Source of the DNA: a virus
Virus record (IMG/VR): IMGVR_UViG_3300014913_000006
Length of the DNA stretch: 64,000 nucleotides
Strand: one strand, 5' to 3'
Shown in pieces: positions 31,072-36,208 of the stretch. Positions within the stretch are counted from its first letter, which is position 1. Each line of letters begins with the position of its first letter. Made by a program: the position numbers and the translations under genes. Below the pieces are notes generated by a model, which did not search any database, had not been told where the DNA came from, and saw nothing but the letters and a program-made list of their open reading frames with translations.

Positions 31072-31155
31072 AGATTGATGGGGACAGATACCACCGTTGC
31101 TGTGTTTACCGATATTACAATTATAGCACAACGTCTGACGCCCCCCCCCTCCGGG
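31063..31155 (-). pseudogene. HNH endonuclease C-terminal remnant
   Basis: PEG[G9 frameshift]QTLCYNCNIGKHSNGGICPHQSGV*, similar to YPEGFQVLCFNCN of 40974-41702. Confidence 0.7.
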
Positions 31156-31201: not shown

Positions 31202-31236
31202 AAAAAAACCGGACAGCCTTGTTGGACCATCCGGTT
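31202..31236 (-). terminator. Intrinsic terminator ending the tRNA/RNA ligase operon
   Basis: AACCGGATGGTC..GGCTGTCCGGTT stem followed by a T-run. Confidence 0.8.
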
Positions 31237-31245
31237 CTGTGTTCC

Positions 31246-31309
31246 CGTGTACCTGAATCTACACAGTCCACCCCAAGACACGCGCTCTCACCGACTGAGC
31301 TACCGACCC
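31246..31309 (-). pseudogene. 5' half of a tRNA (Pro-TGG-like) with no T arm or 3' acceptor strand
   Basis: GGGTCGG TA GCTC AGTCGGTGA GAGC G CGTGT CT TGG GG, then sequence diverges. Confidence 0.65.
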
Positions 31310-31725
31310 TCTTCTCGCTCGTGGTGATGCCTCAATATATGACAATTGGCACATCTTACATCACACTTAGCCATCTCTTCAAACAGAGTCTTCAAACTAA
31401 GGCCCTGTGTTGCCATCCTGGAAATATCACCATCCTTGGTTCCACGAACATGATCAAATTGTAGAACCACCGGATTCGCTTCTTCACAATCAACACAAGG
31501 ATGCGATTGCAGATACTTCAGTACCTCTTCGTGGTTGATCCTCCGCTGTCTATCCGAAAACACCCTGGCACGATTCTTGTAGGCCCCCTTGTTCTTTGCA
31601 TAGTGATCCCGGCTCATCGTGTTCGTACACTCTCTGCGTCTCTTGTGACGAATCCTCTTTGCCCTATTCGCAAAGTTGAACTCTCTGGCCGGTTTTGCCT
31701 TACCGCATTTTTGACAGATTTTCAT
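31300..31725 (-). CDS. HNH endonuclease
   Basis: CQKC...HPCVDC...LQFDHVRG...KCDVRCANCH. Confidence 0.85.
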   Translation of the reverse strand: MKICQKCGKAKPAREFNFANRAKRIRHKRRRECTNTMSRDHYAKNKGAYKNRARVFSDRQRRINHEEVLKYLQSHPCVDCEEANPVVLQFDHVRGTKDGDISRMATQGLSLKTLFEEMAKCDVRCANCHILRHHHEREEGR

Positions 31726-31726
31726 A

Positions 31727-32776
31727 TCAGCCCTCGATCACATTCTTGTGAGGACGAATCCGCTTCATGACATACGCATCCAGCCACCCATATTGTCCGT
31801 CCAGCATAGCAAACATTGCTGGTTGATGGAACATCTTCTGTGCTCGCTGCGCGAAAGCCGCCCGGTCTGGTTGATCCCCTATCCGACCAAACTGCTCTTG
31901 GACCTCAGACAAAACATCCTGATACTGTTGAGATAAAGCAGCAGCAATAGCATCTAGGACGCAATGGTAATCGACATCCACAATACTCCACACCTCTTCG
32001 GGCACCCTCCCGTCAACCATCGTATTCCAAATCGCCAACGGCGTCAGGTTCATCAACAGGTCGCTGCGTCGGAAGTAATCCTCCGACTTGATCTTGACCC
32101 GTAGGCCATTATCGAATCGGATGACAAAACCTTCAAGCTCAGCCCCAGAAACCGTCTTGATCTGCCCCCGACAGTACCTCAGCCATTCCTTGTCATACGA
32201 CTCGGCAAGTGTGAAACCGAACTCCCGACTCCACTCTTCGACCTGTCCCCAGTCATACTCTTCGCCTGTATGGCGGTTGTAAGCCGCCAGGAGCACTAGG
32301 TCTTCCAGGTCACCGTAGTCTACGACGATACGGGTCGCAGGACAGATAAGTTCAAACACCAAGGTCACCTCATCGGGTAGCCCAGTCAGATCGTACCTCT
32401 TCAGGAACTCTGTAGCCCAGACGGCACCCGTGCTCTTGAATGACCCTCTTGTGGCAATCCGATGCTGCCCCTCATGACGATAAAGGATACCAAGCCACCC
32501 GTCGTATTTCTTGAAGATACGGAATCCATCATGCCAGGGAAGCGCCCACTCCTGGGTGTCTCTTCGCTGGTTCATGTTGAAGAACTTAGGAAATGGCCGT
32601 GCCACTACCTTTCCTGTCTTGCGATCGAAGATGATCCCCCGGCTATTCAGCGTGAGATCATTCCAAGTCTTACACCAGTTGGTGTAGCTGTAGATGCGCA
32701 TATCGCCCAGATCGTCGCACCGAAGCAATCGCTCAGCTACAAGCTTGTTTCGATCTTCTATGAAATCATACTTCAT
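31727..32776 (-). CDS. RNA ligase 1 (T4 Rnl1-like)
   Basis: SRGIIF..VVARPFPKFFN, KYDG (motif I), ATRGSF, FEL, EGFVI, RVKIK. Confidence 0.9.
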   Translation of the reverse strand: MKYDFIEDRNKLVAERLLRCDDLGDMRIYSYTNWCKTWNDLTLNSRGIIFDRKTGKVVARPFPKFFNMNQRRDTQEWALPWHDGFRIFKKYDGWLGILYRHEGQHRIATRGSFKSTGAVWATEFLKRYDLTGLPDEVTLVFELICPATRIVVDYGDLEDLVLLAAYNRHTGEEYDWGQVEEWSREFGFTLAESYDKEWLRYCRGQIKTVSGAELEGFVIRFDNGLRVKIKSEDYFRRSDLLMNLTPLAIWNTMVDGRVPEEVWSIVDVDYHCVLDAIAAALSQQYQDVLSEVQEQFGRIGDQPDRAAFAQRAQKMFHQPAMFAMLDGQYGWLDAYVMKRIRPHKNVIEG

Positions 32777-33753
32777 ACCGTCACCTCAACTGGGTGTGCG
32801 GCACTGGCTGTATCATTATAAGCAACACACACATCAAGACAGTTTTTTGCACAGATTGGATCAGCACCGCTATCGTGCTCTAGAATCCAACGTAGCCGAT
32901 CCGCTCTCATGTTCGGCCCAACCTCTCCGATTGGGTCTCCACCTTCGCGTAGGTGGATAATGCACGGGAAGTGCCACTTGCCAGCGACAGCCATGTCGTC
33001 CAGGGCCAGCCAACACTTGCGACAGTTCCCGTCACAAATACCACGTACATTCTGACCAGCGTTGAGATTGCCAATCCGGTACTTCAGGATAGGATACTTG
33101 TCGAGAATCTCATTTGGCAAATCAGCAAGATTCGTCAGAGCCTTGTTGTACTGTGCTGCTGGGATGACGCGGATGTCAGAAACCCCTAGACTGTCTACGA
33201 ACAGAACCGCCTCAACACACTGATCAACGTTGGCCTCCGTGAATACCATTCCAACCGTCACATAAGTGATCTTGCTCAAAGTGCGAATCGATTCAACAGC
33301 TTTCGCCCATGCGCCCTTCACACCACCAGCCATGTCTGTGCCGACAGCGCAGCATCCACCGTCAAGGCTAATAGAAAAGTCGTTTACACCGGCCCCTACC
33401 AATGCCAAGTATGTCTCAAGTTTTGCTGTTCCGTTGGTAGAGATTGCAATGCGTTCAACCCCGCCTCCGCGGCATCGATCGACCAACTTGCCAAGCCCCT
33501 TGTATAGAGTAGGTTCTCCACCAGAGAACCGAACGTTCTTTAGCCCTTGGGCGATCCAGAGGTCAACTGTTTTGAGCGCCTGTTTGAACGGCATATCTCC
33601 ACGAATCTCCGGTCTTACACCACGGCAATACGGGCACCGTAGGTTACAGCGATCAGTAAGGATCAACTCACATCGCTGCAACGGAGAGGTGTCGCTAGCG
33701 TTCATCGCACGCTTGTCAGATAGCGTATAGAATCCAATGTCTTCAAGCTTCAT
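32773..33753 (-). CDS. Radical SAM protein with C-terminal Cys cluster (SPASM/twitch-like)
   Basis: CNLRCPYC, FSGGEPT, ISTNG, SISLDG; true start MKLED with SD AAGGAGG (the longer called ORF overlaps tRNA-Tyr). Confidence 0.88.
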   Translation of the reverse strand: MKLEDIGFYTLSDKRAMNASDTSPLQRCELILTDRCNLRCPYCRGVRPEIRGDMPFKQALKTVDLWIAQGLKNVRFSGGEPTLYKGLGKLVDRCRGGGVERIAISTNGTAKLETYLALVGAGVNDFSISLDGGCCAVGTDMAGGVKGAWAKAVESIRTLSKITYVTVGMVFTEANVDQCVEAVLFVDSLGVSDIRVIPAAQYNKALTNLADLPNEILDKYPILKYRIGNLNAGQNVRGICDGNCRKCWLALDDMAVAGKWHFPCIIHLREGGDPIGEVGPNMRADRLRWILEHDSGADPICAKNCLDVCVAYNDTASAAHPVEVTV

Positions 33754-33771: not shown

Positions 33772-33855
33772 TGGGCTGGGCGGGACTCGAACCTGCACGC
33801 CCCCGAAGGGAACCGCGTTTACAGCGCGGCGGGCCACCAATTGCCCAACCTACCC
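33772..33855 (-). tRNA. tRNA-Tyr(GTA)
   Basis: Cloverleaf CCGCG-CTGTAAA-CGCGG, long variable arm, TTCGAGT; CCA not encoded. Confidence 0.85.
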
Positions 33856-33908
33856 TACTGCAACTTCCTTTTTCTTCCGATCCTAGTTTACCCTGCCTAT
33901 GTTTTCAA

Positions 33909-33992
33909 TGGCCTCGGCTGGATTCGAACCAGCACGCCCTTTCGGACACGGACATTTGAAATCCGCACGTCTACCATTTCCGTCACGAGGCC
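33909..33992 (-). tRNA. tRNA-Leu(CAA)
   Basis: GGCCTCG/CGAGGCC acceptor, CGGAT-TTCAAAT-GTCCG, long variable arm. Confidence 0.9.
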
Positions 33993-33994
33993 AA

Positions 33995-34067
33995 CGGGCT
34001 GGGAAGGATTCGAACCCTCAACTTTCGGCTTTGGAAACCGACGCTCTTCCAATTGAACTACCGACCC
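33995..34067 (-). tRNA. tRNA-Trp(CCA)
   Basis: TCGGT-TTCCAAA-GCCGA, GAGGG-TTCGAAT-CCTTC, discriminator G. Confidence 0.85.
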
Positions 34068-34071
34068 ACAA

Positions 34072-34153
34072 TGCCCCAGGCAGGAGTCGAACCTGCAACC
34101 CTTTCGAGACTGGTTTCTAGGACCAGCGCGTCTGCCAGTTCCGCCACTGGGGC
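34072..34153 (-). tRNA. tRNA-Leu(TAG) with atypical C33
   Basis: GCCCCAG/CTGGGGC, CTGGT-CCTAGAA-ACCAG, long variable arm. Confidence 0.8.
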
Positions 34154-34164
34154 TTTTGTCGAGA

Positions 34165-34719
34165 TTATGGTGTTCGTACAGTACCACCCCCGCCGTGTCG
34201 CAAAATAAATCCCGCAAGCTCGTCAGAGAGTCTTCGTAGCTCGTTTGCCGTAGTAGAAAACGAGGTTGTGTGTCGCTTAGATCGTAGGATGATCGTCACA
34301 TCCGAATCTGACGACAACACGGTAATCTCTCCATTGCCAATAGACATAGTATGTCCGAACCGAACAGTAGCCTGATCCATTCCAACAGCCAATGCCTCAT
34401 GTAGCTCGGCAAACATCGCCGGGGAATCCAACATACGACAAAGGACAGGACCAACAACAGGGGAAGCCACAACGCCAGTCGATCGATCCCGAGACACAAG
34501 CAACACGAACATGTCGTTGATAGAATGGATGCTGAAAGTTGCACTCTTGGAATCAATGTGGCCTATTTCTACCCCCTCTCCCGCAATTACGCTTTCTACA
34601 TCCTGCGCAAGCGGTAAGAACCGGTCTACTGATTGTATGGCTGTTGGGCTAGCCAATACCACAAACATCAAACTCAAACTGATCCAAGATGCCCCACTGC
34701 CAATCTTTTCTTTCGACAT
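34165..34719 (-). CDS. Hypothetical exported/membrane-anchored protein
   Basis: N-terminal hydrophobic segment; SD AAGGA; lies between tRNA genes. Confidence 0.55.
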   Translation of the reverse strand: MSKEKIGSGASWISLSLMFVVLASPTAIQSVDRFLPLAQDVESVIAGEGVEIGHIDSKSATFSIHSINDMFVLLVSRDRSTGVVASPVVGPVLCRMLDSPAMFAELHEALAVGMDQATVRFGHTMSIGNGEITVLSSDSDVTIILRSKRHTTSFSTTANELRRLSDELAGFILRHGGGGTVRTP

Positions 34720-34733
34720 TTCCTTACCCCTAA

Positions 34734-34816
34734 TACCCCTGGTAGGATTCGAACCTACAAGCCCTTTCGGACAGCGGAGCTTAAACCCGCCACGTCGCCA
34801 GTTGCGTCACAGGGGC
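34734..34816 (-). tRNA. tRNA-Leu(TAA)
   Basis: GCCCCTG/CAGGGGT, GCGGG-TTTAAGC-TCCGC, long variable arm. Confidence 0.88.
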
Positions 34817-34842: not shown

Positions 34843-34917
34843 CTTACTCGAAGGGACTCAAACCCCCGACTTCCTGGTCCCAGGCCAGGCGCTCCGGCCA
34901 GACTGAGCTATACACTG
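34843..34917 (-). pseudogene. Pseudo tRNA-Pro
   Basis: D arm and CCTGG-CCTGGGA-CCAGG are intact; T loop TTTGAGT; 3' acceptor strand does not pair with CAGTGTA. Confidence 0.7.
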
Positions 34918-34946: not shown

Positions 34947-35585
34947 CTACGTAGAATGGCCTATCACTTCAACTTCGATTCCACGCTTCCTTGCTTCACC
35001 GACTATATGCTTAGTACCCTTCGACTGGGATAGATCATCGTGGAAAGCAATAAGAAGGTGGGGCTTAGTATCTAGCATCTTGATGTTTCTTCTTATCCCT
35101 GCTGATTTCCCATACTTCCTCCATGCTGCCGGAAACTCAACCACCTCAAGGCCAAGGTCCAACGCCGTCTCCCGAGCTATCAAGTCAGCACCTTTACAGC
35201 CACCCTCGATGATTATGCTGTCAGATGGAAGATCGAACAATCGTTTGAAGATTGCTTGGCCATTACTCCAATCCCGACCACCACAAACTAGCACCTTCAT
35301 GGGTTTCTCCAAATACTCGACGATCACATCTCCATGACACGCCTTTGGCTTACAGAAACACCCCAGCCTCTTACCCCTCAACTCTTCCACTCGTGCGGCA
35401 AACTCCTGGTCAACCCGCAACCGCTTCAGGAAATACTCCCGGTACAACGCGATTGCCCGCTCACGACCACCATCCCGCGTTACGCTATATGGGTTACCCC
35501 AATAGCCATCGTGGCCATGTCCCTCCCGACCGACGTACACATCGTATTCGTGTGTCCGAATGTTTACTACTGTGGTCTCAGCCAT
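34947..35585 (-). CDS. Fusion of DUF4326-like and DUF2493/SLOG-like domains
   Basis: YDVYVGR...WGNPY...LRGKRLGCFCKPKACHGDV joined to KVLVCGGRDW...GGCKGAD...AGIRRN..ML...SKGTKH. Confidence 0.8.
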   Translation of the reverse strand: MAETTVVNIRTHEYDVYVGREGHGHDGYWGNPYSVTRDGGRERAIALYREYFLKRLRVDQEFAARVEELRGKRLGCFCKPKACHGDVIVEYLEKPMKVLVCGGRDWSNGQAIFKRLFDLPSDSIIIEGGCKGADLIARETALDLGLEVVEFPAAWRKYGKSAGIRRNIKMLDTKPHLLIAFHDDLSQSKGTKHIVGEARKRGIEVEVIGHST

Positions 35586-35773: not shown

Positions 35774-35956
35774 CTATCCAGCAAGCTGAATCGCAACATG
35801 AGCCTCGGCTATATCATAATGCTGTGCCAATTCTGCTGCCCAGGCGGGTATCTCCCACATCCCTGTTTCGGAAAGCTGGATCAAGTTTCCACAAACCTGA
35901 TCGGCCTCTTCTTCTGTCAACAGTTCCCGCTTGATGATCTTCTGCCCAGTCGTCAT
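35774..35956 (-). CDS. Small hypothetical protein
   Basis: First ORF after the attenuator; SD GGAG. Confidence 0.5.
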   Translation of the reverse strand: MTTGQKIIKRELLTEEEADQVCGNLIQLSETGMWEIPAWAAELAQHYDIAEAHVAIQLAG

Positions 35957-35971
35957 GGTCCGATACTCCAC

Positions 35972-36125
35972 AAAAAAAAGCCTGCGATTTCTCGCAGGCT
36001 AAGGTCTCCATCAAAAAAACAGACAGACCCTAGCCCGCATCACCACCCAATGCGCGTGGATTGCGTGCGGCGACTAAATTGGCGGGCTTATACTGTCTAT
36101 GTTTCATCTTCATCGTTCTTCCTCC
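35972..36125 (-). promoter_or_regulatory. Leader-peptide transcription attenuator
   Basis: AGGAGG + 27-codon ORF (36113-36030); alternative 1:2, 2:3 and 3:4 pairings; terminator AGCCTGCGA-GAAA-TCGCAGGCT + T-run. Confidence 0.75.
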
Positions 36126-36134
36126 TGCTATATC

Positions 36135-36163
36135 ATTATACCCCAAACTCCGGTGTTTGTTCC
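36135..36163 (-). promoter_or_regulatory. Class II promoter GGAAC-N17-GTATAAT
   Basis: One of four copies with identical spacing. Confidence 0.7.
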
Positions 36164-36173
36164 ACAAAAAGTG

Positions 36174-36208
36174 AAAAAATCTGGTGCCGCCCCTTATGGG
36201 ACGACACC
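36174..36208 (-). terminator. Intrinsic terminator
   Basis: GGTGTCGTCCC-ATAA-GGGGCGGCACC then AGATTTTTT. Confidence 0.65.

Follow-up and report, generated by a model that had tools for sequence, protein, structure and literature searches.

We analysed a 64,000-nucleotide stretch of viral DNA (IMG/VR record IMGVR_UViG_3300014913_000006), referred to here as the window. On its minus strand, a short regulatory cassette lies ahead of an operon of tRNA, RNA-repair and nucleotide-processing genes. A sequence-only reading had proposed that the cassette is a leader-peptide attenuator consisting of a promoter, an AGGAGG ribosome-binding site, a 27-codon leader, a 14-bp antiterminator helix between segments 2 and 3 (helix 2:3) and a terminator with a GAAA loop. 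When we inspected the sequence base for base, every element that it had listed was found exactly where it had been placed. The cassette is laid out as follows.

36175-36208, minus strand: upstream intrinsic terminator with an 11-bp stem, an ATAA loop and a T-run, found by terminator scan
36135-36163, minus strand: sigma-70-like promoter, GGAACA, 17 nt, TATAAT, from the sequence
36121-36126, minus strand: Shine-Dalgarno sequence AGGAGG, 7 nt 5' of the leader ATG, from the sequence
36030-36113, minus strand: leader ORF of 27 codons plus TAG, encoding the peptide MKMKHRQYKPANLVAARNPRALGGDAG; open in all 15 homologues
36067-36099, minus strand: segment 1, TAGACAG ... AAGCCCGC ... TTTAGTCGCCGC, leader codons 5-16; pairs with segment 2 and its flanks in the fold of the window
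36025-36038, minus strand: segment 2, the antiterminator 5' strand, GCGGGCTAGGGTCT (GCGGGC-TAG-GGTCT), which holds the leader stop
35994-36007, minus strand: segment 3, the antiterminator 3' strand, AGACCTTAGCCTGC, sharing 7 nt with the terminator 5' arm
35972-36000, minus strand: intrinsic terminator, segments 3:4, AGCCTGCGA, GAAA loop, TCGCAGGCT, with a 9-bp stem and a U8 tract
35954-35969, minus strand: conserved junction GGAGTATCGGACC-ATG, where the first gene past the attenuator has its ribosome-binding region and start

The promoter belongs to the motif TTGnnACAAAC...TTTGGGGTATAAT, which is kept in 11 relatives, and TTTGGGGTATAAT occurs once in the 64-kb window. A search for second copies of the promoter or the attenuator turned up none, either in the window or in a complete relative of 179.5 kb, where the attenuator is likewise single-copy. 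The upstream terminator would shield the cassette from transcription arriving from upstream, and one relative, L002, carries a compensated equivalent 5' of its promoter. The ribosome-binding motif (T)AGGAGGAA is kept in 12 of 15 homologues. We conclude that the cassette is a real, conserved, single-copy regulatory element. Elsewhere, another promoter class, (T)GGTGTATAAT, recurs ahead of blocks of structural genes, both in the window (57330, 42984, 31074 and 5520, all minus strand) and in relatives (L007 at 1655, L019 at 5848). Promoters of this TGGTGTATAAT type drive other units and are distinct from the single TTTGGGGTATAAT promoter of the attenuator.

Behind the junction lies the operon that the cassette would gate.

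35774-35956, minus strand: first downstream ORF, 60 aa, without a family assignment; in most relatives the DUF4326-SLOG gene takes this place
34947-35585, minus strand: DUF4326 plus YAcAr/SLOG protein, 212 aa (Pfam E-values 4.7e-24 and 5.6e-12)
33772-34816, minus strand: tRNA block of Leu-TAA, a 184-aa ORF, Leu-TAG, Trp-CCA, Leu-CAA and Tyr-GTA (ARAGORN and Rfam)
31727-33750, minus strand: radical SAM enzyme, then an Rnl1-type RNA ligase (Pfam, PHROG, NCBIfam)
31300-31725, minus strand: HNH endonuclease gene (PHROG 2255, E-value 5e-29)
about 31203-31232, minus strand: operon-end hairpin and T-run, with a TGGTGTATAAT-type promoter next at 31074

Searches with ARAGORN, Rfam, Pfam, PHROG and NCBIfam confirmed the DUF4326-SLOG gene, five tRNAs, radical SAM enzyme and Rnl1 ligase that the sequence-only reading had named downstream. 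Missing from that account were two small ORFs, of 60 and 54 aa, between the attenuator and the DUF4326-SLOG gene, and the HNH endonuclease gene, which sits behind the RNA ligase and closes the operon. The terminator that it had placed at the operon's end is there as well and probably ends the transcription unit; a simple terminator scan had missed this hairpin because of its long loop. Weak internal promoter-like sites are present in the operon, and none of its annotated genes is a polynucleotide kinase/phosphatase partner for Rnl1. DUF4326 proteins are predicted to be rhodanese-phosphatase-like, to act on ADP-ribose-derived molecules and often to be fused to SLOG (PMC9503650, PMC7824862), a prediction that agrees with a counter-defence role for the gated block.

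Two further stretches of the operon resemble tRNAs; the first was likewise missing from the sequence-only account. Directly 3' of the DUF4326-SLOG gene, where relatives have tRNA-Pro and tRNA-Asn, positions 34851-34910 (minus strand) match the Rfam tRNA model at 31.1 bits over model positions 8-63 and are uncalled by ARAGORN; they are probably a decayed tRNA. Between the HNH endonuclease gene and the operon-end hairpin, positions 31265-31310 (minus strand) resemble the 5' half of a tRNA (GGGTCGGTAGCTCAGTCGGTGAGAGCGCG), and neither ARAGORN nor Rfam calls a tRNA there.

Searching GenBank phages with 6.5 kb of the locus returned nothing by megablast and only tRNA matches by blastn. Relatives were instead found by searching IMG/VR and JGI metagenome contigs, mostly from sediment samples, with the DUF4326-SLOG protein. 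About 15 distinct sequences of uncultured phages, 70-85% identical to the window, carry the cassette, and a further IMG/VR locus, L090, has the same covariance-model score as L026. Most relatives have the cassette directly 5' of the DUF4326-SLOG gene, which it would gate directly, followed by tRNA-Pro, tRNA-Asn and then a larger tRNA island. The window, L009, L022 and L028 have other small genes after the GGAGTATCGGACC-ATG junction. Among 185,579 bacterial species genomes, a pattern scan combined with a covariance model revealed no copy of the attenuator, in prophages or otherwise, and gave no pointer to the host; two pattern matches that the covariance model did not confirm are chance matches.

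The element also falls outside known RNA families. With 10 kb of the locus and with the 241-nt region as queries, the cassette reached the threshold of no Rfam family. Sub-threshold matches to MicX, OmrA-B and Trp_leader were rejected as memberships, the last of these (RF00513) scoring 19.7 bits, short of its gathering score of 41. A T-box is equally absent: the 241-nt region has no match to RF00230 at E <= 10, and it has neither a Stem I nor a specifier loop.

The leader behaves as a translated reading frame whose peptide is of little consequence. Across 15 homologues, stop codons number 26 and 29 in the two alternative frames but are absent from the leader frame, which is retained in all of them through lengths of 18, 21, 27, 29 and 46 codons. 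Translation would begin at an ATG or GTG at constant spacing from (T)AGGAGGAA, and in each of the 15 the stop, TAG or TAA, occupies nucleotides 7-9 of the antiterminator 5' strand. The peptide's N-terminal half is freely variable. At the C-terminal GGDAG, codon changes are non-synonymous yet neutral for pairing: GAT to GGT (D to G) and GCG to GTG (A to V, the C-to-U change lying opposite a G). Selection therefore appears to act on translation and on the RNA, not on peptide sequence. Pfam recognizes no family in the leader peptides, except for a marginal TacA1-like match in the atypical 46-aa ORF of L002. As the sequence-only reading had noted, the leader lacks a run of codons for any single amino acid.

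The terminator (3:4) folds in 14 of 14 homologues tested, with energies of -5.9 to -19.5 kcal/mol. Five of its nine pairs have changed on both sides, and none of 500 shuffles reached the observed covariation score; by this comparative measure, helix 3:4 is proven. When the full-length RNA is folded at equilibrium, the terminator dominates the ensemble of nearly every homologue. Shuffling the upstream ORF, which we tried as a test of this dominance, was set aside as non-discriminating, since the terminator together with the inner pairs of helix 2:3 usually prevails whatever the ORF sequence.

Helix 2:3 would compete directly with this terminator. All 14 positions of GCGGGCTAGGGTCT pair with AGACCTTAGCCTGC, two of them as G-U, and the window antiterminator alone folds at -27.9 kcal/mol, compared to -11.6 +/- 2.6 for shuffles, none of which (0/300) did as well. 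The helix, whose conservation the sequence-only reading had made a point of, folds in 14 of 14 homologues (-15.5 to -29.9 kcal/mol) and is usually stronger than the terminator, with z-scores of -2.3 to -6.8 (mean -4.5) against shuffles of its 5' part. Its alignment cells are 97% paired, compared to 20-54% with slid partners, and pairing is 90.6% on a covariance-model alignment of 17 sequences. Across homologues the antiterminator consumes 6-8 nt of the terminator 5' arm, making the two helices mutually exclusive. Subgroups whose inner helices differ still form it (AGUCU/AGACU, GGUC/GACC, GAGUCGA/UUGACUU); MAFFT and covariance-model alignments misregister the inner helix of the L001 subgroup, for which per-sequence folds are the better evidence. 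Variation is nearly all one-sided, from G-C to G-U, with a single double-sided pair change, and the shuffle control for covariation is not significant. Overall, helix 2:3 is strongly supported by these comparisons. The anatomy of the cassette, its conservation, its kept reading frame and its mutually exclusive helices are all shown by the analysis.

Pairing between segments 1 and 2 is plausible. The minimum-free-energy fold of the 171-nt RNA consists of segment 1:2 plus the terminator (-57.6 kcal/mol, z -2.9). Seven same-length homologues share a consensus fold of 23 pairs, comprising the helices GCAGAC/GUCUGU, UUAGCC/GGCUAA, CCGCGC/GAUGCGG and CCAC/GUGG, which are 92% paired compared to 35-45% with slid partners and show no significant covariation. 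The register differs among subgroups: the L001 subgroup uses another segment 1, AGCUUGCA, at codons 3-5. Of the signs that the sequence-only reading had advised looking for in relatives, the analysis found covariation in the terminator and a conserved leader frame, with mostly wobble changes in helix 2:3 and no significant covariation in 1:2.

To model the effect of translation, the transcript, cut at the end of segment 3, was folded once for every codon position of a ribosome, whose 29-nt footprint was masked. For the window, the simulation yields three classical states. With no ribosome, the probability of the antiterminator is 0; with the A-site at codons 6-16 it rises to 0.57-1.00; and it returns to 0 once the ribosome occupies the final codons or the stop. 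These values agree with the earlier prediction that stalling on segment 1 would free the antiterminator. Among many of the relatives, the antiterminator is favored at equilibrium even without a ribosome, 1:2 being too weak to block it, indicating that termination of an untranslated leader is not a trait of the family. The feature predicted family-wide is that a ribosome on the last five or so codons or on the stop blocks antitermination. Fast translation of the leader would therefore terminate transcription, and a lagging or stalled ribosome would allow read-through.

Taken together, the comparative and folding analyses make it likely, in our judgment, that the cassette is a ribosome-mediated transcription attenuator of trp geometry that lacks a codon run and gates an accessory operon of the phage. 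The trp/his-type geometry had been claimed from the window's letters, and about 15 diverged relatives uphold it by keeping the ORF, the stop in segment 2, the antiterminator and the terminator. Transcripts from a host-type promoter would open with a 27-codon ORF that is well initiated and has its stop codon inside the 5' strand of a strong antiterminator, which shares 6-8 nt with the terminator 5' arm. A ribosome keeping pace would sit on the last codons or the stop while the polymerase makes segments 3 and 4, covering segment 2 and allowing termination. A ribosome lagging or stalled at approximately codons 3-20 would instead cover segment 1, leaving segment 2 to pair with segment 3 and the polymerase to read through into the island. 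An untranslated leader would terminate too in the window, where segment 1:2 outcompetes 2:3, but not in all relatives. The phage thus probably opens the gene block when ribosomes slow. Both the switching in vivo and the signal to which it responds are inferred; the likeliest signal is how fast the leader as a whole is translated, as set by the supply of tRNA or aminoacyl-tRNA or by general stalling, and not any one amino acid.

Could the leader instead sense particular tRNAs? The island's own tRNAs might read the leader codons (UUA by Leu-UAA, AAU-CCA by Asn and Pro, AGA by Arg-UCU), so that the island would be transcribed only while those tRNAs are scarce and shut off as they accumulate. We regard such feedback as unlikely, although relatives with fuller islands lend it some force. 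Their leader residues match the amino acids of their tRNAs above background (21/23 in L001, p 0.003; 17/21 in L026, p 0.0007; L009, p 0.003), this amino-acid-level enrichment spans p 0.0007-0.07 in relatives, and frame 0 beats frames +1 and +2 and shuffles. TTA accounts for 7% of the phage's Leu codons yet occurs in 13 of 15 leaders, and Leu-TAA is found in each relative with sufficient downstream sequence. AAT-CCA is conserved, and Pro-TGG and Asn-GTT are the first downstream tRNAs in most relatives. Against this, enrichment for strict codon matches is weak in those same relatives (p 0.05-0.17), and in the window only 3 of 21 leader codons are cognate to operon tRNAs, compared to a background of 0.11-0.13 (p 0.40-0.53). 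Being homologous, the leaders count as no more than one or two independent cases. Conserved 1:2 helices include TTA, AGA and CCA (UUAGCC/GGCUAA, CAGAC/GUCUG and CCAC/GUGG), and a GC-rich helix favors codons for Ala, Arg and Pro regardless. With AGA (codon 6), TTA (codon 13 or 14) and AAT-CCA in or beside these helices, the identity of the codons is inseparable from RNA pairing. Finally, the window leader is 85% identical to that of L026, whereas the window's island lacks Pro, Asn, Ala, Arg, His and Lys tRNAs, so the leader does not track tRNA content. Codon matching between leader and island tRNAs was rejected for the window and is weak and confounded by pairing in the relatives.

The sequence-only reading suggested another stimulus, in which anticodon nucleases cut Lys, Tyr, His, Gln or Arg tRNAs and the stalled ribosome induces tRNA replacement and Rnl1 repair. 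As the dedicated signal this is improbable. Its Lys, His, Gln and Tyr positions vary freely among homologues, so conservation does not support it, and the AGA that it also invoked is conserved, together with TTA, within 1:2 helices, where pairing explains both. Nor does the annotated part of the operon contain a polynucleotide kinase/phosphatase, and nothing ties the stall to nuclease action over any other slowdown. The gated genes are nonetheless all of counter-defence type (replacement tRNAs, Rnl1 ligase and, from its predicted activity in PMC9503650, DUF4326-SLOG), and in simulation the switch opens wherever within codons 3-20 the ribosome stalls; anticodon-nuclease damage is a possible trigger, among others, of a general sensor of translation slowdown. 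The remaining alternative dispenses with switching altogether: a small gene or small RNA would be followed by a terminator of fixed leakiness that sets a low, constant level of island transcription, or the short transcript would itself be the product. Promoter and terminator do delimit a discrete RNA of roughly 165 nt, the terminator dominates at equilibrium as noted above, and there is the weak sub-threshold likeness to small-RNA models. This reading, which we consider very improbable, leaves unexplained a hairpin of -15 to -30 kcal/mol that consumes the terminator 5' arm and is kept in all homologues, the retention of frame through five length changes, the stop codon fixed within the antiterminator hairpin, and a peptide that is unconserved where RNA pairing makes no demand. 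A translation-speed attenuator accordingly remains our preferred reading.

Such an attenuator has well-known relatives in bacteria. The Escherichia coli trpL leader and those of his, leu, thr, ilv and pheA are leader-peptide attenuators. Like them, the phage cassette has a promoter-proximal short ORF, alternative segments 2:3 and 3:4 with a putative 1:2, a stop at or in segment 2 and a terminator before the first gene, and the window shares with trpL the predicted termination of an untranslated leader. Unlike them, it lacks a run of codons for one amino acid and would gate phage tRNAs, RNA-repair and nucleotide-processing genes rather than biosynthesis; several phage relatives, moreover, favor the antiterminator without translation, and the element has no Rfam membership. 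Closer in its target is pheM, the E. coli pheST leader, in which a run of Phe codons gates a tRNA synthetase gene. There too, leader-peptide attenuation controls a component of the translation apparatus through tRNA charging, but the phage leader has no codon run and the tRNA genes themselves would be gated.

Leaders without a codon run are represented by vmlR, bmrCD, lmo0919 and Tn916 tet(M), which respond to antibiotics and gate ABCF, efflux and ribosome-protection genes in bacteria. They share with the cassette a short upstream ORF, a terminator/antiterminator choice and the lack of a codon run (compare PMC8546547, PMC12421871). By analogy, general stalling would open the switch and the gated genes would relieve translational stress, and some of these leaders reside on mobile elements. 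The present element differs in belonging to a lytic-type phage, and we liken it to them by architecture alone, not by inducer. T-box riboswitches also place a terminator/antiterminator decision that reports tRNA status before translation-related genes; they bind tRNA directly through a Stem I and specifier loop, whereas here a translated ORF would be the sensor.

Full-text literature searches returned no description of a leader-peptide attenuator ahead of phage tRNA or RNA-repair genes. The roles of phage tRNA islands and RNA-repair genes, and the timing of their expression, are debated; among the views are compensation for codon usage and evasion of tRNA-targeting defenses (for instance PMC11464382, PMC12482277). 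If the attenuator works as proposed, the phage would gauge translation speed and couple supply to demand, a feedback loop undescribed, in the literature searched, for tRNA genes or phage counter-defense genes. Going further, the cassette could be a translation-stress sensor that makes a counter-defense island inducible, opening when host defenses that cleave or deplete tRNAs, or the codon demand of the phage itself, slow the ribosomes. We offer this only tentatively and hold it to be doubtful. Were it true, the phage would make its replacement tRNAs on demand, along with the ligase for RNA repair and the enzyme whose predicted substrates are ADP-ribose-derived signals, and production would cease once translation recovers. 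Because the promoter, Shine-Dalgarno sequence and terminator are of ordinary bacterial type, the approximately 200-nt cassette should be directly usable as a reporter, and it could act as a compact sensor of translation stress.

Two relatives carry unusual versions of the leader. The variant cassette at L024:560-700 has an 18-codon leader whose ATG lies 8 nt past the TATAAT without a Shine-Dalgarno sequence, and its stop is still inside segment 2; the mRNA translated here is probably leaderless or nearly so. At L002:3783-3923, the leader has 46 codons, its N-terminal part giving a marginal match to the Pfam TacA1 antitoxin-like family (22.5 bits against a cut-off of 21), and a tRNA-Ala sits between the promoter and the ORF. 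The 5' part of the L002 leader appears to have been replaced by recombination, with the frame to the conserved stop preserved.

While comparing relatives, we observed another conserved element, consisting of two hairpins (TCTGCCAGGGGCAGG, GGAAYCCATRAAGG, CCACGGAGCCGTATCTGTGG), at L001:1968-2030, L002:3710-3770, L027:520-575 and L006:3975-4000. The window lacks this element, and Rfam has no match for it. L001 carries a compensated change (CCGCUGAG...CAGCGG). In relatives, the element adjoins tRNAs or directly precedes the leader ORF, and in L006 it abuts a DUF4326-SLOG gene cut to its last 44 codons, as if marking a recombination junction.
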